Positions 1,044 through 59,024 of a DNA stretch of 64,000 nucleotides are shown here, in pieces. The stretch lies in NCBI GenBank assembly GCA_001816585.1, contig MHCJ01000007.1, positions 2,062-66,061 on the forward strand, read 5' to 3'. Within the stretch, counting starts at the first letter, position 1. Each line of letters begins with the position of its first letter. Under the pieces are notes generated by a model. That model did not search any database. It had not been told where the DNA came from and was given only the letters and a program-made list of their open reading frames with translations. The position numbers and the translations under genes are program-made. The stretch is from Candidatus Chisholmbacteria bacterium RIFCSPHIGHO2_01_FULL_52_32. GTDB taxonomy: Bacteria; Patescibacteriota; Microgenomatia; UBA1400; Chisholmbacteraceae.

Positions 1044-1066
1044 GTGGGTGAGGGAGGGATCGAACC
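1044..1066 (-). other. tRNA 3'-end-like fragment (T-loop GGTTCGATCC plus acceptor-like tail) with no matching 5' half
   Basis: reverse complement reads ...GCGGGGTTCGATCCCTCCCTCACCCA; no complementary 5' acceptor strand within reach (tRNA-Ile starts 100 nt away); abuts repeat copy A. Confidence 0.3.
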
Positions 1067-1129
1067 CCGCACAGCTCCTGCCTGAGCTACGGCTTTCAAC
1101 CTGTACTCTCAGGCGCGTCGTCTACGGGG
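1065..1129. repeat. copy A of a 65-nt structured repeat (outer stem CCCCG/CGGGG, inner stem GCCTGAG/CTCAGGC, conserved CTCCTGCC and GCGCGTCGT-TACG blocks)
   Basis: aligns base-for-base with copies at 2744..2809 and 8620..8684; the outer stem differs from copies B and C by a compensatory C-G to A-T change. Confidence 0.6.
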
Positions 1130-1166
1130 CAAGCCTTCGACCTCTGAATACAATTTTTGAGCTTTG

Positions 1167-1238: not shown

Positions 1239-1646
1239 TTTTTATGTTTCAGCTCCCTCTACACCCGTCGCTCCCCGGAGAACATCATCGACGTGCTCAG
1301 GCTTACCGGCAGTCGCTGCTTTGGTCGCCTCAACCCCCACAGCTCTTACCGCCTCAGGATGCTCGGCGATGACTCGACCCAAATGTTCCCGGAGCTCCTT
1401 TCCCGATAACTCCGCTACCGATGTTCCCGGCTTTGTTTCTGCCATCATACCTCCTTAACAGAACTCCCCTATCCTACCATAGACTTCTGAAAAAATCACA
1501 TCATGGCAAAACTAAAACCCTAAGATTTACGTTTTGAGTTTGAACGGATGCTTACACAGCAAGTATGTATTTTTCCCAGGAAATCATATGGGCTGATGCA
1601 TAATATTACCTACTACACCAATCTTTTCTCATCTCTGGCACTTACC

Positions 1647-1675
1647 TTGACAATGTGCTAATCACGTGGTATAGT
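1647..1675 (+). promoter_or_regulatory. near-consensus sigma70 promoter TTGACA-17 nt-TATAGT
   Basis: TTGACA at 1647-1652, exactly 17-nt spacer, TATAGT at 1670-1675. Confidence 0.6.
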
Positions 1676-1694
1676 ATCCCCATTCGGACAGGAG

Positions 1695-1726
1695 AATATT
1701 AGCCCCAAAGGCTAATATTTTTTTAA
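1695..1726 (+). terminator. intrinsic terminator: perfect 10-bp stem AATATTAGCC/GGCTAATATT, 5-nt loop, T7 run
   Basis: lies about 15 nt downstream of the predicted transcription start of the 1647 promoter; either a ~45-nt transcript or an attenuator. Confidence 0.55.
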
Positions 1727-1770
1727 GGCCTGAGCATTGAAAAATAAAATCTGATTGATCGCTCAAAAGA

Positions 1771-1957
1771 AAAACCCTTTTGAACGCAGCTACTCGAGAA
1801 TGAAGTGAGCGAATACCACTAAGATGTCATCGACTGTTCGACGAAGGGTTTATCCCGAGGAGTTTGATGACATGGAATGAGCGAACGAGTTCCCGAGAGA
1901 CCGTTCACTGGGGCGTCATTCTTTGGTTACTTTCTTGGATGAGCAAGAAAGTAACAA
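1771..1957. ncRNA. copy 1 of a conserved ~190-nt structured non-coding element (family unidentified)
   Basis: collinear nucleotide similarity to 58806..59001, including covarying hairpin GAGCG-(loop GGTTCCCGARAGA)-CGYTC and terminal hairpin TTTCTTGG-loop-CAAGAAAG; no credible ORF. Confidence 0.4.
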
Positions 1958-2123
1958 TTTCTCCTGGGTTCCACTCTGGTGGGAGGCTGCGAGCGCCTTT
2001 TTTTTAATTAGGTTCGTCCTTCCAGCGTTCCGCCAGAGTCGAGTCCAGGATGAAATACCCGGACGAAGACCCCGTAGCCATAGGAACTATGTGGTACCGG
2101 GGTTGAGTCCAGGAAAAATAAAA

Positions 2124-2186
2124 AACGCTTTAGAGGAGCAATCACGAAGGGCTTTGATACGCCGTGCCTCTAAAGCACGGCGTTTT
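2124..2186 (+). terminator. terminator hairpin GCCGTGC-CTCTAAA-GCACGGC plus TTTT, with an upstream alternative pairing GCTTTAGAGG/CCTCTAAAGC (antiterminator-like)
   Basis: two mutually exclusive pairings visible in the sequence; resembles a riboswitch or attenuator expression platform. Confidence 0.4.
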
Positions 2187-2368
2187 AGTTGTCCGAAGTA
2201 AATTGCTCTTTTAAAACCTTTTGAAGCCGCCGCCGCCGCGACTCAAAGATGAAACGAGTGGGAAACCAAAACTGACCGAAGGGAATTTTGGAGGGAAATG
2301 AAATGAACCTGACTGAAAGTCAAGATCTCCCACCGTCGAATCTGAAGAATCGCCGGCAAGGCTTCACT

Positions 2369-2420
2369 AGGGGGCCATTCTTTTGGATACTTTTCTTGGG
2401 CAAACAAGAAAAGTATCAAC
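2369..2420. repeat. partial third copy of the terminal hairpin module of the ~190-nt element (GCCATTCTTTTGG-ATACTTTTCTTGGGCAAACAAGAAAAGTATC)
   Basis: matches 1912-1957 and 58953-59001. Confidence 0.45.
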
Positions 2421-2743
2421 CGCCTGGATCCCAGGCATATGTAAAAACTTATAGTAATATAATCTGGGACTCTCCCCTCTGGTGGTCCCGGGAATTATTG
2501 ACAATAAACCTTAACAATTTGACCGAAAATAGGTGTCCGGGAGCGTGGGAGAAAAGGGCCAGCCTCGACTAGACGCCAGCCTCGCATAGATACAAGTCTA
2601 GGCGGGCGAGTCTAGGCGGGAGCAAATCCTCTAAAGCGCAGGCCGAAAGACCTGAAAACCCCTTTCTCCTACACTCCCTGGCATCAGGGGAGTCCCAAGA
2701 TTGCCTTGGGAAGATCCCCAAGATGAAAGGGGTTGCTCTTTAA

Positions 2744-2809
2744 CCACGCTACAACTCCTGCCTGATCTACGGCCTACGGCCTGTACTCTCAGGCACGTCG
2801 TATACGTGG
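2744..2809. repeat. copy B of the 65-nt structured repeat (outer stem CCACG/CGTGG)
   Basis: same orientation as copy A, 1.6 kb away; the two bracket the non-coding island. Confidence 0.6.
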
Positions 2810-3059
2810 TCTGCAGAGCTCATCTCGACATATTGTCGGGATTCGCTCTTTGACAATTGAATGGCGAGGTTCCCGATGAATACATCGAGAACCGAAGTCC
2901 CGCAGCAAAACCCGAATACCGATACGGCCGAATAGGCAGTGAGCGGTAAGTCGAGTTTTTGGTGCTGGGACGAGGTTCTCTGTATCCTCGGGAATCTTCA
3001 TAAAAATGAAAATAGGCGCAATAGTGATGCAGGGAAGAGTGGAATAAAACTATCTCACT

Positions 3060-3386
3060 TTACGAGGAGTGTTGCCCGCCAGGATGGATACTTTCAAGCT
3101 TCTCAAGCCTCTCTTCATGATCGTAAACTTTTGGAGCGAAAATATCCAGACTTTCTCGAATAGCTTTCAACTGGCCCATCACATCGGAGATAGCATTCAT
3201 AATTCGACTGCTATACATCTGGAACTTTTCCTCAAGTCTTCGGTCAACGACTTGCTCGATCTGATCAACATCCTGCTCCGTAAGCATAACGACACAATTC
3301 AACCACATCATCCCAAAGGAGTCAACGACATTTTGGGGAAGCAATTCCCCTCCACTCTCCCCTGCATCACTCGGGGAAAAACCCAC
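3060..3386 (-). CDS. hypothetical small protein (uncertain)
   Basis: 108-aa ORF divergent from the gene at 3421; competes with an overlapping plus-strand ORF 3069..3512 that runs out of frame into the next gene. Confidence 0.3.
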   Translation of the reverse strand: MGFSPSDAGESGGELLPQNVVDSFGMMWLNCVVMLTEQDVDQIEQVVDRRLEEKFQMYSSRIMNAISDVMGQLKAIRESLDIFAPKVYDHEERLEKLESIHPGGQHSS

Positions 3387-3420: not shown

Positions 3421-3879
3421 ATGAAGTCGTTGAGGAAAGTGATCTTGCCCGCCGTAGTAGCAACTGCTATCTGTGTCCTCTTGTCGGAGGTATTGTTCCG
3501 GCTGCTGACTGATGCGCCGACCGCAAGTCCGCTCCGCTGGCTCGTGACTGACATGCAGCGCTTCACCGTGCTGATCTCTGTTCTACTTACTGCAGCCGTG
3601 CTGCTTCGACGGGACGATCGAGCACCTGAAGAAGTCCTGATGAGCGGATTCAGATTCACCGTCAAGGTCTACTGGCTGTACATCCGGATCGTCGTCGCGA
3701 TCGTGAGCACCGCCGTGGTTGCATACCTGGTAGTTGGCGCTGTCGTGGGAATCTTCAATCCCACAGATATCGCGATCTACCTGGGCGTCCCGATTCTGAC
3801 AGGCTTTGCGGCAGGAATACTCCTGCTGGCAGTCAAAGCCCTCATAAGAAGGAGTAACAACCACCAGCCGTCACCCTAG
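3421..3879 (+). CDS. hypothetical integral membrane protein (about 4 TM)
   Basis: 152 aa; ATG preceded by AAGGAG; the 20-nt leader AGGGCTAGAGAAAAGGAGAA is identical to the leader of the next gene. Confidence 0.7.
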   Translation: MKSLRKVILPAVVATAICVLLSEVLFRLLTDAPTASPLRWLVTDMQRFTVLISVLLTAAVLLRRDDRAPEEVLMSGFRFTVKVYWLYIRIVVAIVSTAVVAYLVVGAVVGIFNPTDIAIYLGVPILTGFAAGILLLAVKALIRRSNNHQPSP

Positions 3880-4728: not shown

Positions 4729-7065
4729 GTGAACCATCGTAACCGTACGTGGTATCCCCGTCTGGCGCTGGTCACGGTGGCAAGCATGCTGCTTGCCGCT
4801 GTCATGCCAATCGTTCCCACCGCCGCTTCGCCGGCAACCAGGCCTCTCGCCTGGAACGTCAGCCAAACGGCCGAGTCCGTCTGCATCCCTGAAAACCAAG
4901 TGGGTATCCAGGGAAGCTTCCGAAACGATGACAACCGTTCGATGGACGTCGTCGCCACGGACGAGCAGACGGGAAAATCCGTCAACCTGGGATCGGTCGC
5001 CCCGAATGAGACTGATGAGTTCCTCATCGAAACCGGCCTGTCGGTTGTTACCGAGGGCAAGGTCAGGTTCGACCTAACCTGGACGCAGGAAGATGATGAC
5101 GATGAGGACGGCGATACGACCCCGACGGAACCGCCCCCGGCGGAAACCGAAGATCCGACGGATGAGGCATCCCCGACTCCAACGGAGACCGTCGAGCCGG
5201 CACCGGAGGAAACGCCCATCCCTGATGATGACGGCGACGATTCCGATGACACGGAAGACTCGGACGACTCCGACGACGGAGAAGAGGAAGACGACGACTC
5301 CGACGGAGATGACCAGGACGATGACGGCGAAGATTCCGAAGACTCGGATGATTCCGACTCTGAGGATCGCAAGGGCGATCACGACGATGACGACGAAGAC
5401 GAGGATGAGGGAGACGACACGGCTTCGGCCGTTTTGAACTTCTTCTCAATCGGCGCCGTCGCCAATGCGGGCGGAAACCACGACGAGAAGTTCGCAGAGT
5501 ACGACGCCCGCGACTGCCGCCAGCCCGAACCGACCCCTGAGCCGACACAAGAACCGCCTCCTTCATGCTCGATATTGGCCTCTGCCAACAACGAGCAGTG
5601 GGTGAGCGTCAGCGTCGACTACTCAGGTGGACCTACCGGCTGGTGGTGGCAACTCGAGTACAACCTCGGAACTGGGTGGACCGAATGGGCAGGTTGGCAA
5701 AATGGCAGTTCGCCGAACCCATGGACTGCGGGCCAGACGTTTGCTCCAGGAACTCTAGACCTTCGGGTCAACTTTCTGGGCATCGGAAATGGCATCTGCG
5801 GTACATCGGTCGTCGTCCCCGAATCTCCTCCACCGGAGCCAACCCCGGAGCCGACTCCCGAACCGCGGGAGAACCCGCAATGTACCGGCGCATCCTACGC
5901 CTTCACGGACATCTTCCGCGAGGTCGAGGTCACTGCTTCCTGGCAGAACGCCACTATGACCTCCGTCGTCTGGGAGGACGCCACCCACTTCGAGTGGAGC
6001 AGTCCCTACCCTGACGGAGAAGGATCAGCCAAGCACATCATCGACGAAGCGCTCGGACCCGGGCCGCACCTGATCCAGGTTGTGGTCACCGGCGCCGAAG
6101 GCACCGATCCGAGCCTTTGCTCGCCGATCGAAGTGACCTTCCCAGCGCCACCGCGACCGACCCCGGAGCCCAAGCCTGAAGTCAGCGCCGCTGTACAGTC
6201 CCTTCCGCAGCTCTCCTTCTGCCTGAAGAGCCCAGCCATCGTGCTTGAGCGCGGTGGTGAGATCGTCCGTCTGGACGTGGACCTCCAAAAGCTTGTGATC
6301 GTTCAGGAGACCATCCTATCGGCAGACCTGGAGGGCATCAGCACTCACTCGAGGATCAGCCCGGACGGCTGCTTGGTCGTTTTCAGCCACACCATGCCAG
6401 GCGCTTCCCAAGCGGAGCTCTGGACGGTCGGGCTCAACGGCCAAGGGCTGTACCAAGTCACCCGGACAGAGGATGCAAGCGAAATCCAGCCTGACTGGGC
6501 CTCCAACTGGGTGATCGACTACAGCGCCGGAGGACAGCTTTTCTCGACAGACCGTCTGTACACGTTCGTCCGCGACCTGCGCGTCGCCGGAACAAGCCCT
6601 GACGCATCGCCGGACGGCGAGTGGGTAGGCTATACCGACCCGGATGGGAACATCCGCATCGTCAGCGCCCACACCGCACGTCTGGGTGACTTTGCCACCG
6701 GCTTGACCGGCACGAATCCGACGTTTGATCCCCGCGGAACTACGCTGTTCTACACCAGTGACGCCGGCCTCGAAGCGTTTACCTTCGCAAACCGCGAAGT
6801 AACCACCATCGACCGCTCCGCCACCGACATCGCACGGGATCCATCCAATCACGCAGCCCTCCTGGTTGTCAGCGGAGAGCTAGTGGTAGTCGATCCGGTG
6901 GATTCGGCAAATGTCGTCGGCACCCTCACCGGCCCCGAAGCCGAAACCGGCTTCCGAGCCCTGGCGGTCGAAGCCCCGAACCTCTCACCCGACTGGTGGG
7001 ATCCGAATCCGTTGGTGCCCAGCACCATCGGACTCCAGCTGTTCCTCACAGGGAACGGCACCTAA
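4729..7065 (+). CDS. secreted multidomain protein: signal peptide, ~110-aa poly-acidic (D/E/S) tract, proline-rich PEPTPEP linkers, C-terminal TolB-like beta-propeller repeats
   Basis: 778 aa; GTG start after AAGGAGAAGG; N-terminal hydrophobic signal; repeated SPDG..W.. propeller-like motifs; antisense ORFs over the acidic tract are artefacts. Confidence 0.8.
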   Translation: MNHRNRTWYPRLALVTVASMLLAAVMPIVPTAASPATRPLAWNVSQTAESVCIPENQVGIQGSFRNDDNRSMDVVATDEQTGKSVNLGSVAPNETDEFLIETGLSVVTEGKVRFDLTWTQEDDDDEDGDTTPTEPPPAETEDPTDEASPTPTETVEPAPEETPIPDDDGDDSDDTEDSDDSDDGEEEDDDSDGDDQDDDGEDSEDSDDSDSEDRKGDHDDDDEDEDEGDDTASAVLNFFSIGAVANAGGNHDEKFAEYDARDCRQPEPTPEPTQEPPPSCSILASANNEQWVSVSVDYSGGPTGWWWQLEYNLGTGWTEWAGWQNGSSPNPWTAGQTFAPGTLDLRVNFLGIGNGICGTSVVVPESPPPEPTPEPTPEPRENPQCTGASYAFTDIFREVEVTASWQNATMTSVVWEDATHFEWSSPYPDGEGSAKHIIDEALGPGPHLIQVVVTGAEGTDPSLCSPIEVTFPAPPRPTPEPKPEVSAAVQSLPQLSFCLKSPAIVLERGGEIVRLDVDLQKLVIVQETILSADLEGISTHSRISPDGCLVVFSHTMPGASQAELWTVGLNGQGLYQVTRTEDASEIQPDWASNWVIDYSAGGQLFSTDRLYTFVRDLRVAGTSPDASPDGEWVGYTDPDGNIRIVSAHTARLGDFATGLTGTNPTFDPRGTTLFYTSDAGLEAFTFANREVTTIDRSATDIARDPSNHAALLVVSGELVVVDPVDSANVVGTLTGPEAETGFRALAVEAPNLSPDWWDPNPLVPSTIGLQLFLTGNGT

Positions 7066-8619: not shown

Positions 8620-8684
8620 CCACGCTACAACTCCTGCCGGCAAAATCCGCTTAGCGTATTCTTGCGGGCGCGTCGTATACGTGG
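8620..8684. repeat. copy C of the 65-nt structured repeat (outer stem CCACG/CGTGG, variant inner stem)
   Basis: identical 5' block CCACGCTACAACTCCTGCC and 3' block GCGCGTCGTATACGTGG as copy B; about 30 nt of additional downstream similarity to the flank of copy B. Confidence 0.6.
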
Positions 8685-8899
8685 TTTGCGGTGCAAAAGC
8701 ACCTTAACAAGTGAATGATGAGGTTACTTGTCCCTTTTGTGGGACAAGGAATTCTCTATAGCCCCGGAAAACTCGACAATCGTGCGTTGCAGAGACATCC
8801 CCCGCGTTCCGCCAATCGGCGGACTACTGAGGAAAAGGAGGTCAACAGGAAACGGCCTATCAATCCGCGCGCTAAATCAAGTACGAAGGAGACGTTCCC

Positions 8900-11725: not shown

Positions 11726-12655
11726 ATGAAACAGAAACTCGGATTGGCAATCGGCGTCATCTGCCTCCTTCTTCTCGGAATGGTATCCGCTGTGCGGATC
11801 GCCAAGGCCGCCAGCCCCGCAGCTTGCTCAATCAACACCTTCCCTGTCAATGATCCCAACACCCGTTACCACACGGTCTTCACCTGGAGCAATGCCCACA
11901 CAAACCAATGGTTCCTCTTTCAATGGGGCGATGAAGCCAATACCGGCAAAGATCCCGTGGGATTCATCGGCCAAAGCGGTAGGGCGGAATGGGAACACGA
12001 GTACAACCCCGGAACTTGGGAACAGTGGGCAAACCTTTCCGGTCCGGGAGGAAACGGCGGATGCAAGGTCTCGGTAACCGTCCAGGTCACACAAGACCCC
12101 GCCAGCTGTACAATCGAAGCCTTTGTTGACGGATCAAATCCCAGCCTCTTCCACACGGTACTGCGCTGGAACAACACAAACGATGGCGAGTGGTCCCTTT
12201 TCCATTGGGGCGATGAGGAATTCACCAAAGCCGATCCCCCGGGATTCCGCGGACCGTTTGGGGAAATTTCCTGGGACCACGAGTACAACCCCGGAACCTG
12301 GGATCAGTGGGCCAACGTTGCAGGACCGAGAGGCAATGGGAGTTGTAAAGTCGTGGTTACCGCAAAACTCCAACAACCGGCGGCAACCTGTACCATCACC
12401 ACCAATCCGGTGAATGTCGAACAGACCCGCTTCCATACGACGCTCACTTGGAACAACTCGTACAGCGACCAATGGTCCCTCTTCCACTGGGGCGATGAAG
12501 AATTCACCCAAGCCGGCCCTGTCGGTTTCTTCGGCAGCAATGGAACAACGGAATGGGAACACGAATACAACCCCGGCACCTGGGAACAGTGGGCCAACGT
12601 TTCCGGTCCCGGCGGTCCCAGTGGCTGCAAAGTCATCACTTCCGTCAACCCATAA
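11726..12655 (+). CDS. secreted protein made of three ~95-aa tandem repeats (conserved HT.F/LTW.N....W.LF.WGDE and EHEYNPGTWEQWAN.SGPGGNG.CKV blocks)
   Basis: 309 aa; signal peptide; three collinear internal repeats, each starting with a Cys and ending with CKV. Confidence 0.8.
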   Translation: MKQKLGLAIGVICLLLLGMVSAVRIAKAASPAACSINTFPVNDPNTRYHTVFTWSNAHTNQWFLFQWGDEANTGKDPVGFIGQSGRAEWEHEYNPGTWEQWANLSGPGGNGGCKVSVTVQVTQDPASCTIEAFVDGSNPSLFHTVLRWNNTNDGEWSLFHWGDEEFTKADPPGFRGPFGEISWDHEYNPGTWDQWANVAGPRGNGSCKVVVTAKLQQPAATCTITTNPVNVEQTRFHTTLTWNNSYSDQWSLFHWGDEEFTQAGPVGFFGSNGTTEWEHEYNPGTWEQWANVSGPGGPSGCKVITSVNP

Positions 12656-12697
12656 ACCACCTTGAAAGGTCTGACCTTTCAAGGTAATCTTCCCCAC

Positions 12698-12728: not shown

Positions 12729-12756
12729 TTTCTTGTTTCTTGTTACTCCTGACAGC

Positions 12757-12773
12757 TCAAGATGTGGTAGGAA
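12757..12773 (-). promoter_or_regulatory. 3' half of the pre-16S processing stem (TCAAGATGTGGTAGGAA; pairs with 14394..14410)
   Basis: 17-bp perfect inverted repeat flanking the 16S gene, the arrangement seen in RNase III processing stems. Confidence 0.6.
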
Positions 12774-12828: not shown

Positions 12829-14345
<1,517 letters not shown>

Positions 14346-14393
14346 AAATTTGACGCAGTCAAATCCGCCAACTGGCGGACAGACCACGTCTGA

Positions 14394-14410
14394 TTCCTAC
14401 CACATCTTGA
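14394..14410 (-). promoter_or_regulatory. 5' half of the pre-16S processing stem
   Basis: reverse complement of 12757..12773. Confidence 0.6.
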
Positions 14411-14465
14411 ACTATCAAAATGAACCTTACTCTATTGAGTCTATTATTCACTTTTCAAAGAGCAC

Positions 14466-14574: not shown

Positions 14575-15906
14575 TTAATTCTTCTCGGATGAATCTTTTG
14601 ATACTTGCTGCTCAACGATAATGCCGCCTCCCAAGCATTCATCTCCGAGATAAAACACCGCTGCTTGCCCTGGAGCGATTCCCCGCTGGGGCTCAGCAAG
14701 TTCCACAAACAACTTTGAATTTTTCACTTTTAACTTTGAACTTATCAGCTCTCCTCCGTGTCTGATTCGCACCTGTAACCCTTTCATGACTGTTAATTCT
14801 TCATTCTTGATTCCGTTGATGAAATGAAGGTCGGCTACCTGAAATTTATCGCGGAATGTTTCTGCTCCAAATCCGACAATCAGCTGATTCCGAACAACAT
14901 TTTTACCCACCACATAGAATGGCGGTATCGCATGTCTCAACTTGTCACTTGTTACTTGTACCTTGTTGCTGATACTGAACCCATGCCTCTGTCCGATCGT
15001 GTAGAACCAAACACCTTTGTGCTTTCCAATAACATCCCCATCGGTATCGACCACATCACCGGTCTTCTCGTTGATTCTGCGCCGTAAAAACTCGCCGACA
15101 TCGACTTCTCCGACAAAACAAATCCCGACCGAGTCTGGTTTATCCGCAGTCAATAACCTACGTCTCTTCGCCTCTCGCCGAACCTGTTTTTTTGTCAGAT
15201 GTCCGACCGGAAACAAAACGTGAGCCAACTGCTCCTGCATTAGCGGGTAGAGGAAATAACTCTGATCTTTCTTGGCATCAATTCCCTGTAAAAGATGATA
15301 CATTCCGATTCCATCTCGGTTGTGGTGAGCGGGGAGACGAACAAATTTGCGCTGGTCACCCAGACCAGGCATATCGCCTGGAAAGACTTCCGGTTTGGCT
15401 CGAAGTTTCGAACGCAATCGTTGGTGACCAAGCAAATTTCCGTTCGGCGACCTCAGCTCACCGAATCCTATCCTCGCGTAATGCCCTGTTGCTACATAAT
15501 CAAACCCGTGGTTCAAAGCCCATCGCAAGAAGAGCCCGAATTTAATCTCCCGATTGCACACCACATCCGGATTCGGCGTCCGTCCAGCTTCGTACTCGCG
15601 ATAAAAATACTCGATGACCTTCTTCCGGTATTCCTTCTGAAAATCCAGCACCTGAAATGGAATCCCAAGCCCAAGGGCTACGCTCAATGCATCCTTCCGA
15701 TCCTCCGGAGCCCGGCACCCCGGTTCATTCCAACACTCAAGGAAAACACCGGTAACATCATAGCCTCGCTCCACAAGCAAAGCCGCCGAAACCGAGGAAT
15801 CTACCCCGCCTGACATACCCACAGCGACACGTCTGCCCTGAACCGTTCCGCCAACTGGCGGATCTGGTTCACGGGCTACTCGAGGGAATTTCTGCCTCTT
15901 CTCCAT
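14575..15906 (-). CDS. mnmA: tRNA-specific 2-thiouridylase MnmA
   Basis: 443 aa; PP-loop SGGVDSS; conserved NPDVVCN and GHYAR motifs; about 30-aa N-terminal extension. Confidence 0.9.
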   Translation of the reverse strand: MEKRQKFPRVAREPDPPVGGTVQGRRVAVGMSGGVDSSVSAALLVERGYDVTGVFLECWNEPGCRAPEDRKDALSVALGLGIPFQVLDFQKEYRKKVIEYFYREYEAGRTPNPDVVCNREIKFGLFLRWALNHGFDYVATGHYARIGFGELRSPNGNLLGHQRLRSKLRAKPEVFPGDMPGLGDQRKFVRLPAHHNRDGIGMYHLLQGIDAKKDQSYFLYPLMQEQLAHVLFPVGHLTKKQVRREAKRRRLLTADKPDSVGICFVGEVDVGEFLRRRINEKTGDVVDTDGDVIGKHKGVWFYTIGQRHGFSISNKVQVTSDKLRHAIPPFYVVGKNVVRNQLIVGFGAETFRDKFQVADLHFINGIKNEELTVMKGLQVRIRHGGELISSKLKVKNSKLFVELAEPQRGIAPGQAAVFYLGDECLGGGIIVEQQVSKDSSEKN

Positions 15907-17921: not shown

Positions 17922-19382
17922 TCAAGGTAGGTCAACTGGCTGCAAATCCAACCGAAAGTAAACTTCATTCACTATCGTCCTCGCCCATTCGTTGAGTCGA
18001 TTGTGCGTTCCGTCCAAAATCGTTCGTCCGAACACCAATTTTCCGCAGCGAAGGTGTGGCTTCACCAAATCTCCCCTCCTTGGCACCCCATCGGTAAGCA
18101 CAAACTCATCAGGATGTTGTATATCAAGCGGTGTCACTCCCTCCCTCACCCACTCGACTCCAAACTTTTCACTTTTCACTTTAAACTTTGAACTTAACTT
18201 ATAGACTCCCGCCTTCAAATCACCTTTCACTTCTGCCCACCGTTCCGGATCCTTATTATGTAAGACCAAATGCGCCCCCTCCTTCGGCGCCTTCAACGAT
18301 CGATCAACCGCTGCAAAGTCCATCGTATAGTTGATGTCCAAGAACTCTAAAAGCTGGAACACATCAAATGGGATTTCCCCCTTCTGGAGCTGAAGAAACG
18401 AATAGACCGGGAACGCTCCGGTGTAGCGCGGGTTGATCTCATTGGGATAAACCTTCCCTGACTTAGCATCAATCATCAAATCCACCCCAAAAACACCTTT
18501 GTACCCCTGATGCGCCATCGCTTCACCCAGGTTTCTGGCAATCCGCTCCGCCCCTTTCTGTATCGCTGAAGAATAATGTCGGAAGCTCCAATCGTGTCCC
18601 CGCCAGATTCCCCGCCGCTCCCTCAGATTCACAAGCTCCGGAACATCAAGAATCTGCGTCTGCACCAAACCAGTTAACACTCCGTACCGAGTTACACAAC
18701 CCGTTATCGACCCAGAAATCCCATCAATGAAGCGACTGACGTTCACCAACTGCGTTCGAGAAAGATCCAATCGCCCTTTTGCATCCTCCAAAAATGTCCG
18801 AAAGTCAGAAATATCATTGATAAAATACGTTCCTTTTCCTCCACCTTCCGAGAAACTCGTAAGCTGAAACACCAACTGCCTCCCTAGCCTCTTCCTTAGC
18901 CTCCGGTAGTCATCCTCGGTAAATTTCTCAACCTCCCACTGCTCCCCCGGGATTGGAGCCAGTCCGAGTCGTCTAACCAGTGTAAAGAACGCATCCTTAT
19001 CCTCAAACTGATCCCGGATCGCCCGCGGATTGGCAAGAAGCAGCCATCCTTGCTCCTGACAAAACCGATCCACCCACTCCGTATGCTTATAGGAAAAGAC
19101 GGCTATCTTCCCCAGGCTTTGCAAATACCGTAAAACCCCGGGATGCTTAAGAATGGCCTGCGTGTTGAGTTTTTCAACCTCATTTGGAGAGAAGTCGCGC
19201 TGCACTGCTCGGATCGGGCAAAACCGCTTCAGGAAAGAGAGATCGCTCCCCCACTTGTAGCAGACAATCTCGTAGTTTGATGTCACCAAAGCCGGAGAAA
19301 TCCTCCCAAACGCCGTCAGTCCAATTCCCACAATATGGCGCCCTGCCCCATCAAGAAGCTTACAGTAATCCTGAAATTCCAT
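17922..19382 (-). CDS. large ATP-grasp superfamily enzyme (pre-ATP-grasp plus ATP-grasp core)
   Basis: 486 aa; the segment GVFGVDLMIDAKSGKVYPNEINPRYTG is typical of the ATP-grasp C-terminal subdomain. Confidence 0.7.
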   Translation of the reverse strand: MEFQDYCKLLDGAGRHIVGIGLTAFGRISPALVTSNYEIVCYKWGSDLSFLKRFCPIRAVQRDFSPNEVEKLNTQAILKHPGVLRYLQSLGKIAVFSYKHTEWVDRFCQEQGWLLLANPRAIRDQFEDKDAFFTLVRRLGLAPIPGEQWEVEKFTEDDYRRLRKRLGRQLVFQLTSFSEGGGKGTYFINDISDFRTFLEDAKGRLDLSRTQLVNVSRFIDGISGSITGCVTRYGVLTGLVQTQILDVPELVNLRERRGIWRGHDWSFRHYSSAIQKGAERIARNLGEAMAHQGYKGVFGVDLMIDAKSGKVYPNEINPRYTGAFPVYSFLQLQKGEIPFDVFQLLEFLDINYTMDFAAVDRSLKAPKEGAHLVLHNKDPERWAEVKGDLKAGVYKLSSKFKVKSEKFGVEWVREGVTPLDIQHPDEFVLTDGVPRRGDLVKPHLRCGKLVFGRTILDGTHNRLNEWARTIVNEVYFRLDLQPVDLP

Positions 19383-30063: not shown

Positions 30064-31197
30064 CAATTGCCTCCTCGTAAATCCGAAACAGCTTCTTTTG
30101 CATAACAGATAGACTGAAATGCGCAAGGTAGCGCCGCCGAGCCGCCTGCCCCAACCTCCCTCTTAAGTCCGCGTCCAAAACTAGCCGTTCAAGTGCCTCC
30201 GCCAAATCGCCCACGCTTCCAGGCCGCACCAACAACCCCGTCTGTCCATCAACGACCATCTCGGGCAACGCTCCCAGCCGTGAGGCCACCACAGGAATCC
30301 CAAAGCTCATCGCCTCACAAACTACCAGGCCATACCCTTCAGCCTTCGGCGGAACATGGACCAAGATATCCGCCGCCGGGTAAAACTCCGAAACCAGCCG
30401 GTCATAGGAAACAAAATCATGCTGCGTAATCCCGTAAGATTTGTCATTTGTCATTTGTAATTTGTAATTTTTAGGCACCGGTCCCAAAATCGTCAACCGC
30501 ACCGTATCTCCCAACATCTCTCTCACTTTCCGGTATGCCTCCCACAAAATCATTCCCCCCTTCCGCTCAAACCACACTCCGGCAAAAAGTAGTCGAACCG
30601 GACCAACCTTTCGAACCGAAGGTTCCGCTCGATCCGATAGGCCCGGATAGATAACCGCGATTTTTGCGGGATCAGCTCCCAGTGCAATATGCTCCTGTTT
30701 GGCAAACTCACTCATCACCAAGAGTTTCGAGAAATTGCCCAGGGAAAGATCCTGGTCATAAACGGAAAGGAGGGAATGCATCGCCCGCCGCAATCCGTAC
30801 GTAGCCTCGATGCGAAGCCTTCCCTGACCAAAGTATTGAGAAAGCCCCCAACGATTGGGGATACTGTCCCCCATGACCACGGGAATGTGTCGCAAAGACC
30901 CCGAAAGCCGAAGTGTATACGCATGGCAGTGGACAAGATCGAACTTCCCCAAAATCTCAACATCAACGGTTCCTGCCGAAAGGGGCAGGATACGAAACTT
31001 CACCAGCGTCCGAAGAAAAGCGTGGAAGGAGCCATACCGAACCTCCCCCTTCTTAAGCGCGTCCGTATGGTGCACGTACGTCACGCCGGGTGGCGGATTG
31101 GCAAGCAGCGTCCGGGTATAGGTATTCTCCCCACCCATCAGAAACTTGAGGTTCAAAGGAACATCTGGATCGAGCGGTGAAATCAAAAGCACCCGCA
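30056..31197 (-). CDS. GT4 (group 1) glycosyltransferase
   Basis: about 380 aa; EGYGLVVCEAMSFGIPVVA motif; start assigned to ATG MRVLLISPL, with an alternative GTG at 31213; carries an internal heptamer tract. Confidence 0.85.
30439..30473. repeat. in-frame heptamer tract (ATTTGTC)x2 (ATTTGTA)x2 ATTTTTA inside the GT4 coding sequence
   Basis: 5 consecutive 7-mers encode the NYKLQMTNDK linker; the unit length is not divisible by 3. Confidence 0.8.
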
Positions 31198-31223
31198 TAA
31201 TAAAGCGCAGCACTCTGCTCTCT

Positions 31224-31272
31224 GCTATTCGCTATTCGCTATTCGCTATTCGCTATTCGCTATTCGCTATTC
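31224..31272. repeat. perfect heptamer tandem repeat (GCTATTC)x7 in the divergent intergenic or 5' region
   Basis: 7 perfect copies plus degenerate CTCTGCT flank copies; lies 10-30 bp upstream of the GT4 start codon on the minus strand and about 80 bp upstream of the rmlD-like gene. Confidence 0.9.
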
Positions 31273-31351: not shown

Positions 31352-32254
31352 ATGCGCATCCTTCTCACCGGCTCAAACTCGCTCCTCGGAAAAGCGCTTT
31401 GGGAAACAGCTCCGAAAGTATCCTCTCTCATCCTCACCTTCCTCCCTTCCGCTGAGCCAAGCCAAACACGATGGGAAACAGCACCGATGGATATCACCGA
31501 CAAAGCTGCGGTGAAACACACCCTCGCCCGCTTCAAACCCGATTGGATCATTCATTGTGCCGCCCTGTCCGATGTCGATTCCTGCGAGAAAAACCCCGAC
31601 CAAGCCTATGCCGTCAATGTCTTCGGCACGGAGAACCTCGTGAACACGGCAAAAAAGGCTGGCTTACGCTTTCTCTTTACCTCCTCAAACGGTATTTTTG
31701 ACGGTAAACGCACCCTCTATACCGAACGCGACAAGCCCCATCCGCTGCATACTTACGGAAAAACGAAGCTTGAAGCCGAACAGCTCATCACTCGCTCCAA
31801 AGTCCCATCCATAATCGTCCGTCCGAACGCCATGTATGGCTGGCCCCCCGTTGGTGCCCGCCAAAACCCGGTCACCTGGGCAGTGGAGCAGTTGAGTGAA
31901 GGCATCACCCTCGATATGGTGAGCGACACCTTCATAAGTCCGCTCTACGCGCCATCAGCGGCAGAGGCTATTTGGAAACTCGTTAAGACCGACACAAGAG
32001 GCATATACCACATCGCAGGGAAAACCCGCGTCAGCCGTTTTACGTGGACGAAGGAGATCGCCAGGGTTTTCGGCTTCAACCCCTCCTTGGTCCGGCCGGT
32101 AAAAAGTGGTTTCTTTCCGAACCTCGCACCACGCCCAAAAGACACCTCATTCTCAACTGCCCGCCTTGAACAAACCATCGATTGGAAGCCGCTCACGCTG
32201 AAACAGGGACTCATGAGAATGAAAAAAGAGTCAGATCAATTGCTCCACTGTTAA
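31352..32254 (+). CDS. dTDP-4-dehydrorhamnose reductase-like (RmlD family) NAD(P)-dependent sugar reductase
   Basis: N-terminus MRILLTGSNSLLGKAL with a Rossmann GxxGxxG; RmlD-like length; an alternative upstream ATG at 31316. Confidence 0.7.
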   Translation: MRILLTGSNSLLGKALWETAPKVSSLILTFLPSAEPSQTRWETAPMDITDKAAVKHTLARFKPDWIIHCAALSDVDSCEKNPDQAYAVNVFGTENLVNTAKKAGLRFLFTSSNGIFDGKRTLYTERDKPHPLHTYGKTKLEAEQLITRSKVPSIIVRPNAMYGWPPVGARQNPVTWAVEQLSEGITLDMVSDTFISPLYAPSAAEAIWKLVKTDTRGIYHIAGKTRVSRFTWTKEIARVFGFNPSLVRPVKSGFFPNLAPRPKDTSFSTARLEQTIDWKPLTLKQGLMRMKKESDQLLHC

Positions 32255-32308
32255 ATTGTTAAATTGCTGTAGTGAAAAAAACAATAGAACAATACAACAA
32301 TAAAACAG
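32252..32308. promoter_or_regulatory. operator-like motif pair TTAAATTGTTAAATTG ... AACAATAGAACAAT
   Basis: same bipartite motif recurs at 38426..38497; directly upstream of the GTG start of the 32316 gene. Confidence 0.45.
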
Positions 32309-34230: not shown

Positions 34231-36090
34231 ATGAATATTGCTATCGTCTCCGCAGGTTTAAGCACCCATTCTGGCCTCCGCGCCCCAATTGAGCTTGCCA
34301 AGGCCCTCAAAGCCCTCGGCCACCAAATCACGTTCTATGCTCTCTCCAAAGGAAAAGACAACCCGGCAGTCAACGATCTTCGAAGAACAGGGATTCGCGT
34401 TTCCGTCGTAAACGCCCGGTCTCTGCTTACACAAATCCTAATCCTGAAAAAAAAGCTTGAGGCTGGCAATCATGACATTATTTCGGCACACTGTTTCGTA
34501 AGCCAGCTCCTGGCTGCGCGCCTCACAGGTATCCCGGTCGTTTGGACCTACTACGGCACCCAGTTAAACGTCCTTCGCGAACACGTGTTCCCAACCAAGA
34601 ATACGGTGATTGACACAATCGATAGCCTCCTCAACCTGACTATCCGCCTCAAAACGCAAGCAATGGCTTGGCTGGCCGACGAAATCCTGTCGATTAGCAA
34701 TAGCGCAAAGCAGGAGCTTAAAAAGCTCTACGGCCGCAAACCCTTTGCCACCGTCCCCCTCGGCTCCGCCCCACCATCCTTCACAACAAAACCGCTTTCT
34801 CTCTCTCTACGCCCTACGCCCTACGCCCTAAGCCCTAAAATCATTCTCTCCGTCAGCCGTATCACTCCCTACAAAGGCTTTCATCTCCTCATCAGAGTGG
34901 TAAACAGGCTTTCAAAACGCATTCCCGATCTGAAACTTGTGATCGTCGGCTCTGCCCCCCTTCCCCGGTATCTCTCCTACCTTAAAAAAATCTCCGGTTC
35001 CTCTGTGGAAATTATCGTCAATCCAAGTGACGCCAAACTGGTCACGCTTTTCCGACAAGCCAAAATCTACGCGACGGCGGATGAGTACCTGTTCTACGGA
35101 CTCCCGATTTGGGAAGCCTCATCATTTGGCATCCCCTCTGTTGCACTCAAACGCAAAGCCGCTTCCGAAGCGATCGTTCACGGAAAAACCGGCTTTCTTG
35201 CAAAAAACGAGGCTGATCTCGAAGAGTACCTCGAACGGTTACTTACGAATCCAAAACTCTGTCAGCGTATGGGGGAAAAAGCCAGAGAACTCGCTTCCCA
35301 TCGGACCTGGGGAAAAACCGCCCGAAGCTACGAAGGGATACTCCGACAAGTCCTGACCAAACTCTATCTCCCCCTGATCCCGACGGGCTTCTATAGCCTA
35401 ATGAAAAATCTTCAAACGCAAAGAAACCTCACCCTTGCCGACCTCGGATCAGATACGGGAATGAATCTTAAGATTCTGGGAAAACTTGATCTCCTCCGCC
35501 CCATCGCCAAGTTGATAGCTGTCGACATCGATACCAAAAATCTCAAACCCCTCGCCAGAGAAGATCCCAAAGTCCAAATACTCCAAGCGAACCTCACCAG
35601 CCTAAGAAGGGTCCCGAAAAACTCCGTTAACACCATAATCTGTACACAAGTCATTGAACACATTGAAAATCAACAAAAAGCGCTCTCGGAAATTGCCAGG
35701 GTTCTCAAACCGGGAGGAAAGCTGTTCTTAAGTTCGGTTGCAAAAAAATGGTATGGCCTCTACTGGCACAACAATAAAAAGGGAAAAATTGTCGTCCACC
35801 CAGACCACGTCCATGAATTCAGCAGTGTTGAGGAGTTTATTGACCTGATTCAGTCATCAGGACTAACCGTGATCAGATCTGAGCAACTTCCGGGTAGGTT
35901 TCCGCTTTTTGATTACTTCCTTCGTGCGATAAACCTTCTTGCAGGAAAACCAACTTCAGCCGAACACCGGGATTTCTACCTAAAACATCCTCGCCTCATC
36001 CGCTGGCACAAACATCTTTCCTTCCTTCCCATCCCCGGATACTCGATTGTTGAGGCACTCGCTCAAAAACCAATGAGGGAACAGAAATAA
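34231..36090 (+). CDS. GT4 glycosyltransferase fused to a C-terminal class I SAM methyltransferase
   Basis: 619 aa; GT4 region residues 1-370, then the MTase motif DLGSDTGMN...VLKPGGKLFL; contains a (CTACGCC)x3 tract. Confidence 0.8.
   Translation: MNIAIVSAGLSTHSGLRAPIELAKALKALGHQITFYALSKGKDNPAVNDLRRTGIRVSVVNARSLLTQILILKKKLEAGNHDIISAHCFVSQLLAARLTGIPVVWTYYGTQLNVLREHVFPTKNTVIDTIDSLLNLTIRLKTQAMAWLADEILSISNSAKQELKKLYGRKPFATVPLGSAPPSFTTKPLSLSLRPTPYALSPKIILSVSRITPYKGFHLLIRVVNRLSKRIPDLKLVIVGSAPLPRYLSYLKKISGSSVEIIVNPSDAKLVTLFRQAKIYATADEYLFYGLPIWEASSFGIPSVALKRKAASEAIVHGKTGFLAKNEADLEEYLERLLTNPKLCQRMGEKARELASHRTWGKTARSYEGILRQVLTKLYLPLIPTGFYSLMKNLQTQRNLTLADLGSDTGMNLKILGKLDLLRPIAKLIAVDIDTKNLKPLAREDPKVQILQANLTSLRRVPKNSVNTIICTQVIEHIENQQKALSEIARVLKPGGKLFLSSVAKKWYGLYWHNNKKGKIVVHPDHVHEFSSVEEFIDLIQSSGLTVIRSEQLPGRFPLFDYFLRAINLLAGKPTSAEHRDFYLKHPRLIRWHKHLSFLPIPGYSIVEALAQKPMREQK
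34807..34841. repeat. heptamer tract (CTACGCC)x3 CTAAGCC CTAAAAT inside coding sequence
   Basis: encodes LRPTPYALSPK; the same TACGCCC unit recurs at 51036-51050 and 55281-55300. Confidence 0.8.
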
Positions 36091-38405: not shown

Positions 38406-38425
38406 TTTAAGAATTGTTGTATTGC

Positions 38426-38497
38426 TAAATTGTTAAATTGTTAAAACAATAGAACAATGAGCGAGCGCTAGTGAGCGATAACAATAGAACAATGAAC
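38426..38497. promoter_or_regulatory. operator-like motif cluster: TAAATTGTTAAATTGTTAAA, then AACAATAGAACAATGA twice (19 nt apart), the second overlapping the start codon
   Basis: shares the 14-mer AACAATAGAACAAT with 32279-32292. Confidence 0.45.
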
Positions 38498-42720: not shown

Positions 42721-42813
42721 AGGGTATAGGGTATAGGGTATAGGAATTAGGGTTTAGGAATTAGAAATTTGATGTCATTCGTACTGTAATTTGTTATTTG
42801 TAATTTGAAATTT
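42721..42813. repeat. two heptamer tracts: (AGGGTAT)x3 plus 4 degenerate AGGNNTT units, then (GTAATTT/GTTATTT/GTAATTT/GAAATTT)
   Basis: begins at the nucleotide after the ATG of the methyltransferase (minus strand), so it occupies the RBS and promoter region. Confidence 0.85.
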
Positions 42814-58736: not shown

Positions 58737-58805
58737 ACTTACCCCTTTGAACGCAGCAATTCAAGATGCCTACCAACCTATGGAGGAACCCAAGCAATGA
58801 GTAAT

Positions 58806-59001
58806 AAAAAATCCCCCTTTGAGCGGAGCTATTCGAGAACATGCGAAAGCGAACACTGTTAAAAAGCGATCAACTGTCTGACGAGCGCTCGACGCGAAGG
58901 AGTTTGATCGCATAGCGTGAGCGAAGCAGGTTCCCGAAAGAACGCTCATGGGGTGCCCTTTCTTTCGACGCTTTCTTTGGGCAAGCAAAGAAAGCGTCAC
59001 C
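58806..59001. ncRNA. copy 2 of the conserved ~190-nt structured non-coding element
   Basis: collinear with 1771..1957 with compensatory changes in two stems; sits between DegT and YfhO genes (both minus strand); a short extra copy of the 5' block CCCTTTGAACGCAGC lies at 58742-58757. Confidence 0.4.
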
Positions 59002-59024
59002 AGTTTGGATGAGCAAAGAAATGG

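Follow-up and report, generated by a model that had tools for sequence, protein, structure and literature searches.

A noncoding element that folds into a long interrupted hairpin followed by a small separate one is repeated in the genome of a Candidatus Chisholmbacteria member (Microgenomates, Candidate Phyla Radiation, CPR). We analyzed a 64,000-nt stretch of this genome (hereafter the window), whose proteins are identical to NCBI entries (OGY17678 and others), and found three copies in it, named c1, c2 and c3, and further copies in contigs of relatives (named L0xx; stretches of about 10-20 kb were examined). The family is previously undescribed and of a known general kind, the small interspersed repeats. 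Its structure is clearly selected, and the element is constrained despite being a dispersed repeat. We tentatively read it as a lineage-specific, structure-selected intergenic repeat that would act in cis in an ERIC-like manner; it would be kept for its single-strand shape, most likely as RNA.

Copies of the element in the window

An earlier note on this DNA had pointed to two collinear segments, 1771-1957 and 58806-59001, and listed blocks shared between them. Both observations hold: the blocks are present in both copies, and c1 (1775-1955) and c2 (58813-58998) are homologous: nhmmer, run with a profile made from the copies, detects both at E values between about 1e-56 and 1e-68. A profile of c1 and c2 alone matched the window at 1764-1973 (E 1e-62) and 58801-59018 (E 5e-68) and gave nothing comparable in the other 63 kb. 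With a covariance model c1 scored 184.5 bits (1764-1961) and c2 180.5 bits. The note had also described a partial third copy of the terminal hairpin at 2369-2420. This hairpin is real, but it is the 3' end of a complete divergent copy, c3 (2217-2436), with the same rod-plus-hairpin architecture as c1 and c2; its 3' part is matched by the c1 and c2 profile at E 9e-7 and by the covariance model at 40.7 bits (E 2e-10). The 5' block does recur alone, as claimed, at 58741-58766 (half-element 2b). What the note did not recognize is the dispersed, multi-copy nature of the element, with half-copies, a long variant and subfamilies. The parts of the copies in the window are as follows.

1775..1913 (+): c1 long interrupted rod; CCC 1775-1777 pairs with GGGG 1910-1913; minimum free energy (MFE) -64.5 kcal/mol, z -4.55
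within 1775..1913 (+): c1 rod helices 1-8, supported by covariation
1806..1813 (+): c1 5' box TGAGCGAA, exact motif, opposite the 3' box across the rod
1878..1885 (+): c1 3' box TGAGCGAA, exact motif
1914..1925 (+): c1 CU-rich single-stranded linker CGTCATTCTTTG, of a type kept in all copies
1926..1955 (+): c1 terminal 12-bp hairpin with hexaloop (terminator scan; covariation in helix 9)
2217..2374 (+): c3 rod with branched apex, without UGAGCGAA boxes, from its fold; TGAAGCC 2221-2227 pairs with GGCTTCA 2360-2366
2386..2417 (+): c3 terminal 13-bp hairpin; all paired positions identical in the L019 ortholog
2422..2436 (+): additional hairpin GCCTGG-ATC-CCAGGC at the end of the conserved c3 block; in L019 the stem is identical and the loop differs
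58741..58766 (+): half-element 2b, 5' arm only (repeat family D19; nhmmer E 0.007)
58813..58953 (+): c2 long interrupted rod; MFE -74.9 kcal/mol, z -4.44
58846..58853 (+): c2 5' box, degenerate AAAGCGAA, from the alignment
58918..58925 (+): c2 3' box TGAGCGAA, exact motif
58954..58966 (+): c2 CU-rich linker TGCCCTTTCTTTC, from the alignment
58967..58998 (+): c2 terminal 13-bp hairpin (fold, covariation)
59004..59021 (+): degenerate second copy of the small hairpin, TTTGGATGAGCAAAGAAA, seen in the sequence

Secondary structure, covariation and conserved boxes

Folding of single copies gives one long interrupted hairpin (the rod, ~137 nt) and a separate hairpin of 12-13 bp. The folding energies are far lower than for shuffled sequence. 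The two arms that pair are CCCYUUUGARCG..UCRAGA.. (5') and ..UCCYGA..CGYUCA..GGGG (3'), and A/U-rich tracts lie on both flanks of the rod. In L008 and L013 the rod is about 205 nt long, with about 70 extra nucleotides in its apical half. The earlier note had drawn part of this region as a local hairpin, GAGCG-loop-CGYTC, and had counted G-U versus G-C in the GAGCG stem as a compensatory change. Across the 10 copies the local hairpin is 78% paired, lacks double changes and is disrupted in four, and the G-U to G-C difference is not a compensatory change. The CGYTCA..GGGG segment pairs long-range with the 5' block CCCYTTTGARCG and not locally: the 5' block CCCYTTTGARCG..TCGAGAA is the 5' arm of the rod, and its partner is GTTCCCGARAGA.CGYTCA.GGGG, the stretch previously drawn as a local hairpin. 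Since the local hairpin lacks covariation and is broken in four copies, the long-range model replaces it. For the other substitution cited as compensatory, GATGACAT versus GATCGCAT, the compensating change is genuine (ATGTCATC versus GCGATC, helix 6), and the terminal hairpin is real and covaries (GTTAC/GTAAC, GACGC/GCGTC, GATAC/GTATC).

RNAalifold on eight copies predicted 47 pairs, 23 of them with double changes. In the alignment of 10 full copies, which was built with a covariance model and is itself fitted to that model, 91.2% of cells are standard pairs compared with 78.9% in shuffles. Double changes occur in 23 of 50 pairs; shuffles gave 14.3 +/- 1.9, and none of 500 reached the observed number. 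As a slid control, partners were shifted by 1-3 columns, which left 37-47% of cells paired and 4-9 pairs with double changes. An alignment of 11 sequences gave a similar result. The note had named a lack of structural covariation in further copies as a refuting outcome; the copies from relatives do covary, and the family passes this test. The 10 copies represent about five subfamilies, so that independent covariation events are fewer than the raw cell counts suggest. By helix, double changes are seen in 5 of 8 pairs of helices 1-2 (4 of 4 in helix 2 alone) and in 7 of 12 pairs of the terminal hairpin (helix 9), which is 99% paired. Conservation of the fold by compensatory changes marks a structured element; a single-stranded DNA hairpin would give equal counts.

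Two UGAGCGAA boxes oppose each other in the middle of the rod, whatever the apical length. GAGCGA of the 3' box is invariant (10/10 copies); the 5' box has the full UGAGCGAA in 6/10 copies and the core AGCGA in all ten. The central GC dinucleotides of the boxes pair with each other (helix 5), and these G-C and C-G pairs are invariant. Judged from known RNA motifs, the boxes on the plus strand would pair as U-A, G.A, A.G, G-C, C-G, G.A, A.G, A-U, a two-fold symmetric arrangement. Read on the minus strand, they give U.C and C.U mismatches instead of tandem G.A. Selection appears to favor the folded single strand over duplex DNA, given that the boxes are direct repeats, not inverted ones, and stand opposite each other in every case.

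Three further parts are conserved. An A/U-rich asymmetric internal loop of 13 nt, AAUACCAUUAAAAAG, lies opposite about 7 nt and adjoins the boxes. Between the rod and the small hairpin, every copy has a conserved, unpaired CU-rich linker of the form YCUUUCUU. The loop of the terminal hairpin is a GRYRMG hexaloop. The linker is similar to the 3' tail of 16S rRNA, CACCUCCUUUCU, and GAGUUUGAU resembles the 16S 5' end; kinship with 16S was considered and is treated as a probable coincidence. A pseudoknot between the hexaloop and a downstream UUGUC was also considered and set aside: by eye it is found in one subfamily only and shows no covariation.

Strand and transcription signals

We slightly favor the plus strand as the reading strand of the sequence-specific features. 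Its consensus fold has -73.3, versus -62.6 for the minus strand; reverse-strand folds of c1 and c2 are also stable (z -3.97 and -3.76 versus shuffles). By MFE the plus strand is better in 6 of 8 short copies and the minus strand in both long-variant copies. On the structure derived from the plus strand, G-U cells outnumber A-C cells 34-35:10, with an excess in every full copy. Part of this excess is artificial and stems from the alignment register of c1 in helix 1, and on pairs predicted on both strands the ratio is only 13:8; as a strong strand test the G-U/A-C ratio was therefore rejected.

A 5' A-rich tract precedes helix 1 in 8/10 copies and reads as a U-tract after the rod on the minus strand. 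On that strand about 8/10 copies (not L022 or L012) have a U-rich tract after the base of the rod (CCCC/GGGG or CGCU/AGCG). The plus-strand tract after the rod is CCUUUCUU. A conserved rod of 137 nt is far beyond what a terminator needs. No conserved -35/-10 was found before the copies, whose 5' flanks share only A-richness, and no canonical terminator accompanies them. The terminal hairpin is AU-rich, without a U-run after it. The region around c1 and c3 that is free of open reading frames (ORFs), 1450-3060, carries signals on the plus strand only:

1647-1675 (+): promoter-like TTGACA-17-TATAGT, near-consensus
near 1700-1726 (+): AT-rich hairpin with T-run
1981-2001 and 2159-2183 (+): terminators, from a terminator scan

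Three other observations were made around c1 and c3. Within about 25 nt downstream of the promoter-like TTGACA-17-TATAGT (with TG, 11/12) come a 15-bp AT-rich hairpin and a run of seven T, so that 1647-1735 (+) forms a promoter-to-terminator unit of roughly 45 nt directly upstream of c1. The segment between c1 and c3, 2006-2192 (+; 187 nt, -65.4 kcal/mol, z -3.83), is itself strongly structured and unmatched in Rfam; the region's best terminator (2159-2183) stands at its end, and the segment may be a further small RNA. A motif CTGGG..N..CTCTGGTGG follows c1 and c3 at unequal distances (1965-1988 and 2465-2494, +) and is not conserved in L019.

Coding potential

The element family is not protein-coding, in agreement with the earlier statement that no ORF is conserved between the copies. 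A minus-strand frame (..FAH.M.SNSF..RQTVD.F..) is open in c2, L009, L012 and L022 and has been called there as proteins of 65-170 aa. Hand translation of c1, c2 and the relatives' sequences shows the frame that is open in c2 stopped in c1 and four other copies; it is interrupted in c1, L011, L013 and L016, c1 and L009 have no start, and an indel shifts the frame between c1 and c2. The public calls are hypothetical proteins (P0141-P0145) and are artefacts: L009 3465-3701, L012 1164-1583, L020 10001-10513, L022 4168-4437 and, in the window, 58770-59000 (-).

That these calls reflect a small minus-strand protein gene can practically be dismissed, and is already refuted for the family as a whole: the frame crosses the element in the four copies named and an AUG follows a Shine-Dalgarno-like AAGAAAGG in c2, L016 and L022, but early stops (c1, L011, L016, L013), the missing starts and the frame shift speak against it, c2 and L022 differ at many amino acid positions (hand translation), only 5 database proteins match, and nucleotide and structure conservation explains the similarity.

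Copies in relatives and their genomic contexts

Copies in relatives were reached by several routes. L008 and L009 were found via YfhO homologs (67% and 60% protein identity, respectively) and L018 as a contig with a 46%-identical YfhO. A refined DNA-pattern scan of metagenome contigs added L011, L012, L013 and L016. Because gene callers translate the element, the protein database could be used to find more copies, and a search with an alignment of the spurious ORFs yielded L020, L021 and L022. L019 was reached through a relative of the gene adjoining c3; that search gave just two homologs, on short contigs. In species-representative genomes the pattern GAGTTTGATNNCATNNNNTGAGCG gave three chance matches only (L001-L003) and nhmmer found nothing beyond the pattern; in viral contigs the refined pattern had no match. 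Full copies are present at at least ten loci (c1, c2, c3, L008, L009, L011, L012/L021, L013, L016, L020, L022). The total comes to 10 distinct full copies of the c1/c2 type, two of the c3 type and several fragments, with two truncated copies in relatives included.

In the window, c2 sits between the genes for DegT (59025-60233, -) and YfhO (56469-58736, -). The DegT-YfhO junction holds full copies in L008 and L009 too, and L018 has a truncated copy upstream of YfhO. In L017, a further relative, DegT and YfhO overlap and the element is absent from the junction. In L009 the element (3498-3694) lies between the stop of DegT (3468) and the start of YfhO (3724); with about 30 nt on either side, the minus orientation must belong to the operon mRNA there, unless a promoter is hidden inside. 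On the minus strand, half-element 2b reads GCGTTCAAAGGGG-N6-ATG and provides the ribosome-binding region of YfhO, and L008 has a 2b-like arrangement at YfhO, GCGTTCAAAGGGGATAGCTATG. As a general ribosome-binding motif of the genome, GTTCAAAGGGG was rejected (19 matches versus 26.6 expected).

Across the loci the flanking genes are unrelated in function (glycan biosynthesis, LigT and Fic, ECF sigma factor, TPR/hypothetical proteins, AI-2E transporter and response regulator). The element is antisense to its neighbors at DegT-YfhO and in L013, L016, L018 and L022. It is co-directional in L020, and so are c1 and c3 relative to the plus-strand genes from 3421. A rule that it is always antisense to its neighbors held for the first eight contexts and was broken by L020 and by the c3/L019 synteny; an argument for replication-linked single-stranded DNA, which rested on that rule, fell with it. 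Both orientations are probably transcribed at different loci.

Half-elements stand beside full copies in the window (2b), L008 (two), L012 and L013, and consist of the 5' arm, mostly with its box. One to two extra partial small hairpins are found 3' of the element in c2, L009, L011, L012, L013 and L022. Copies at the same DegT-YfhO site (c2, L009, L008) are only 49-60% identical, and copies from different loci (L009, L011, L012, L020) are 73-89% identical. That same-locus copies are less alike than different-locus copies implies turnover or concerted evolution. Contigs repeatedly begin or end inside copies: L018 does so at both ends (1-91 and 2491-2538), and L019 (1-157) and L007 (1-131) at one. 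This suggests near-identical copies elsewhere in those genomes that break metagenome assemblies.

Signs of mobility were sought as well. Pfam detected no transposase domain in the 20 flanking ORFs scanned (flanks only). By eye, no consistent direct repeat that could be a target-site duplication was seen at the c2 versus L022 boundaries; AAAT-like flanks occur in some copies, are low in information and lie partly inside the conserved region. Within the species of the window, c1 is present in 7/7 strain contigs read, with an identical model score, and c3 likewise in the 5/5 that reach far enough.

Constraint on c3 and at the YfhO site

Over 157 nt, c3 and its L019 ortholog share 96.2% identity. 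The gene adjoining c3 has 74.9% DNA identity (66% protein) to its L019 counterpart, and the other flanks are unalignable. All six substitutions between c3 and L019 fall at unpaired positions of the c3 fold, and the similarity stops directly after the extra GCCUGG-loop-CCAGGC hairpin. At the DegT-YfhO site, the element is kept upstream of YfhO where the YfhO proteins are 46-67% identical.

Comparison with known RNA and repeat families

At gathering thresholds, Rfam 15 found 16S and one tRNA only in the whole window. Under relaxed settings, 1300-2800 and 58650-59150 gave chance-level scores of 13-19 bits against thresholds of 44-87. Rfam families including 6S, SRP, tmRNA, RNase P, riboswitches, HEARO, raiA, ROOL and GOLLD gave no match, in line with the note, which had failed by eye to assign the element to a riboswitch, RNase P, SRP, tmRNA or 6S. 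We found no description of the element in the literature. The earlier proposal of a novel RNA family stands insofar as the element is noncoding, structure-constrained and outside Rfam 15; a gene-specific cis-regulator it is not, since the copies flank unrelated genes.

The closest architectural parallels are small interspersed repeats. ERIC, BIME and Correia repeats uncouple the expression of neighboring genes in other bacteria. ERIC has longer variants with insertions of roughly 70 bp at fixed sites, truncated copies and high conservation between species. Like the element, ERIC is an imperfect palindrome of 130-200 nt with modest copy number, is intergenic or intra-operon in either orientation, and forms a long transcript hairpin. 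The resemblance is architectural only: the phylum is unrelated, and there is no sequence similarity, although the 127-bp enterobacterial consensus was not compared directly. Compared with ERIC, the element adds a 3' module (CU-rich linker and 12-13 bp hairpin) and the two facing direct-repeat UGAGCGAA boxes. When co-transcribed, ERIC-type repeats are reported to attenuate transcription or trigger RNase E/RNase III cleavage in an orientation-dependent way (PMC3049150).

Small repeats of the MITE, Correia, BOX, RUP and SPRITE types are less than about 270 bp long, have folded inverted arms, are modular, carry spurious ORFs and may serve as terminators or RNase targets once co-transcribed (PMC3049150). 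The element likewise has terminal inverted arms in a tight fold, modularity and spurious ORFs. It shares with MITEs the terminal inverted repeats and high pairing (the 5' and 3' arms pair over helices 1-4). It departs from them in not being AT-rich (GC 0.46-0.51 versus 0.516 in the window), in having no target-site duplication or parent insertion sequence (IS) identified in the window and the loci examined, and in orthologous copies that persist across deep divergence.

REPINs are inverted REP doublets that form a hairpin, insert beside existing copies and leave decayed singlets (PMC3116915). Two arms in a long hairpin, clusters of copies, decayed single arms and within-genome families are common to both. 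Differences are the lack of a RAYT/Y1 transposase near any copy (flanks only), an apparently much lower copy number, conservation of the whole rod and not just of two REP cores of 16-25 nt, and boxes that are direct rather than inverted.

In TIGR systems, some of which come from CPR genomes, long arrays of tandem 36-nt guide units with variable spacers between the boxes adjoin a Nop-domain Tas gene (PMC12045711). TIGR and box C/D RNAs share with the element a two-fold symmetric pair of short conserved motifs, which suits a symmetric protein dimer. TIGR arrays, the one CPR-linked RNA system that the literature brought up, nevertheless differ from the element in each defining feature, and TIGR-Tas was rejected: the units of the element are about 200 nt and dispersed, they have no variable spacers, and the Pfam Nop domain is absent from the 20 flanking ORFs scanned. 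On anatomy alone we also rejected diversity-generating retroelement repeats, integron attC, retron msr/msd, IS110 bridge RNA, TnpB/IscB omega RNA, hammerhead and CsrA sponge, because no reverse transcriptase, recombinase or nuclease gene is adjacent, core motifs mismatch and GGA is not invariant in the loop.

Function of the element and alternative explanations

The element has in common with such repeats its form as an imperfect palindrome (140-270 nt), a copy number of few to tens, intergenic and intra-operon sites in either orientation, the occurrence of half-copies and of a long variant, and high conservation; on these grounds we favor, tentatively, a cis-acting repeat of the ERIC kind. 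Under this model the element would enter RNA through whatever transcript crosses its site. Once transcribed, it would form a very stable rod flanked by the A-tract and the U-tract and act in cis. Possible effects of the rod are attenuation or insulation of transcription and the blocking or recruitment of RNases, by which neighboring genes would become uncoupled in expression. The symmetric box motif on the plus strand would suit a dimeric protein, in which case the effect would depend on orientation. New copies would arise by duplication, recombination or a transposition route not identified here, leaving half-elements behind, and half-element 2b may have been recruited as the YfhO ribosome-binding site.

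Several points weigh against this model. Two near-invariant 8-nt boxes, a conserved internal loop of 13 nt and a conserved hexaloop would be superfluous in a plain terminator or stabilizer; the boxes, internal loop, linker and hexaloop imply a specific partner, one that no reading identifies. The 96% identity of c3 resembles a trans-acting RNA gene more than a passive repeat. There is no sign of mobility, with no target-site duplication by eye and with c1 and c3 fixed in the strain contigs read. At 46-51% GC versus 51.6% for the window, the copies are not AT-rich. The strand tests lean to plus (34:10, but 13:8 unbiased), yet most copies would be in the minus orientation in mRNA.

The chief alternative, possible but on balance unlikely, is that the copies are stand-alone small RNA genes of about 185-235 nt on the plus strand. 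A protein might then be bound by the rod through its symmetric tandem G.A pairs while the linker or the 5' arm pairs with purine-rich ribosome-binding regions, an equally uncertain proposition. A candidate target, to be viewed with the same reserve, is the YfhO leader, which is nearly complementary to the 5' block of c1 and c2 and might be repressed in trans or by a cis-antisense RNA; 2b on that leader agrees with the 5' arm of c1 in 22 of 26 positions. Only the plus strand allows a tandem G.A reading of the boxes. The plus-strand consensus fold is the better one (-73.3 versus -62.6), G-U exceeds A-C in every full copy and six of eight short copies fold better on this strand, but the G-U excess shrinks to 13:8, is partly due to alignment register in helix 1, and both long-variant copies prefer the minus strand. 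The region around c1 and c3 has a promoter-like site and terminators on the plus strand only, c3 is 96% conserved with changes confined to loops, and the linker is conserved and unpaired in all copies. On the other side, no conserved -35/-10 precedes the copies, L009 leaves 30 nt between the 5' end of the element and the YfhO start codon, and the terminal hairpin is AU-rich and lacks a U-run. The 5' arm is buried in the rod and would make a poor seed. Ten or more diverged loci together with half-copies are also unusual for a trans-acting small RNA family.

We consider it clearly unlikely that the element is a non-autonomous mobile DNA element (MITE, REPIN or IS200/IS605-derived) whose hairpin would serve, as single-stranded DNA, a transposase encoded elsewhere. 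The apparent covariation would then reflect co-evolution of the arms or gene conversion and not RNA function, which we hold to be just as improbable. G.T wobble and tandem G.A pairs are tolerated in DNA hairpins too, which counts for this explanation. So do the multiple copies, the terminal inverted arms of about 26 nt, half-copies like REP singlets, new pieces beside old ones (the c1/c3 tandem, the extra hairpins), subfamilies that deviate from locus orthology, contigs that break inside copies and the absence of the element from the L017 DegT-YfhO junction; REPINs, too, are inverted-REP hairpins that occur in clusters and with decayed singlets (PMC3116915). However, covariation runs along the whole 65-bp rod and a separate small hairpin and not at the ends alone, and the boxes are direct repeats, which arm-to-arm conversion would erase. 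No target-site duplication is visible, the seven strain contigs show no presence/absence polymorphism, and no transposase adjoins any copy. The element is kept upstream of YfhO at 46-67% YfhO identity, and c3 evolves more slowly than the neighboring gene.

More speculative, and at best a long shot, is that the element is the RNA component of an undescribed ribonucleoprotein of the CPR lineage, with a symmetric G.A platform and an anti-Shine-Dalgarno-like tail, or else a SINE-like repeat copied via RNA from a master such as c3. In a ribonucleoprotein, the UGAGCGAA box platform would hold a dimeric protein and the tail would direct the complex to ribosome-binding sites or to the ribosome.

A cis leader specific to YfhO (riboswitch or attenuator) on the minus strand is very unlikely. 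In such a leader the 5' strand of the closing stem would alternate between two partner blocks; equally implausible is its detailed form, in which pairing with the first CGCTCAAAGGGG block would give the rod followed by the U-tract and pairing with the second would engage the block that bears the ribosome-binding site. The element does lie directly upstream of YfhO in the window, L008, L009 and L018, the duplicated arm bears the ribosome-binding site in the window and L008, and a U-tract follows the rod on the minus strand. Yet other copies flank unrelated genes or have no downstream gene, L009 lacks the second block, the orientation to the genes is reversed for L020 and c1/c3, c1 and c3 have no close minus-strand gene downstream, and no conserved junction resembling a ligand pocket is evident. 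The diversity of contexts largely refutes a gene-specific YfhO leader.

A 6S-like RNA, in which a central open region would mimic an open promoter and sequester RNA polymerase, is highly improbable. The element resembles 6S RNA in its size of about 185-200 nt and in being a rod with an interrupted center (closing stem, internal loop region and terminal stem), and its asymmetric A/U-rich loop AAUACCAUUAAAAAG lies opposite about 7 nt beside the boxes. In contrast to 6S RNA, it is multi-copy with half-copies (many diverged copies, three of them in 64 kb, and not one or two), and its center is a conserved symmetric motif whose box pairing mostly fills the bubble. The long variant, with its roughly 70 additional apical nucleotides, is found in two copies, and Rfam 6S (RF00013) gave no match even at E up to 10.

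Other features of the window

A second repeat family is found at 1045-1130 (-), 2720-2810 (-) and 8654-8694 (-), the first two being 85% identical over 59 nt. One copy, which lies just 3' of tRNA-Ile (1166-1238), resembles a tRNA-Ala gene without its anticodon arm (GCCGTAGCTCAG joined to GCAGGAGCTGTGCGGGGTTCGATCCC..CCA); neither ARAGORN nor Rfam called a tRNA there. Tandem repeats of 7 nt (TGTCATT, GCTATTC, CTACGCC, TTCATGA, AGTCTTT) fill many intergenic spacers: 14711-14971, 18163-18196, 30428-30470, 31217-31272, 32238-32266, 34805-34849, 38404-38448 and 42785-42813 in the window, and L011 1590-1625 and L022 4440-4470 in relatives. Three tandem 282-nt repeats (D2, D3; 63-73% identity) at 11863-12679 share a 30-nt word with 5647-5676, which lies inside the gene for a 778-aa acidic Pro/Thr-rich protein (4729-7065); they probably encode a repeated protein domain. 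The 16S rRNA gene is at 12833-14347 (-), with a processing stem formed by 12750-12773 and 14394-14417. No 23S or 5S was detected in the 64 kb, and tRNA-Ile is 11.6 kb from 16S, which indicates that the rRNA operon is split.

Implications

CPR genomes are tiny and streamlined, and their noncoding RNAs and repeats are almost uncharted. The element described here is a covariation-supported structure of 200 nt, occurs in several copies in a 1.16-Mb genome and has long been retained at an operon junction. Its copy number, its retention at that junction and the slow evolution of c3 make it unlikely to be junk. It is of moderate interest, owing to the phylum, to how strong the covariation is and to the box motif with its unusual symmetry. 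Annotation of the element would clean up CPR annotation, where it accounts for fake proteins of 65-170 aa and for contig breaks. If it acts in cis, the element would offer a handle on how expression is tuned within operons of CPR bacteria; if it is a trans-acting RNA or part of a ribonucleoprotein, it would represent a new class of regulator for an uncultured phylum.

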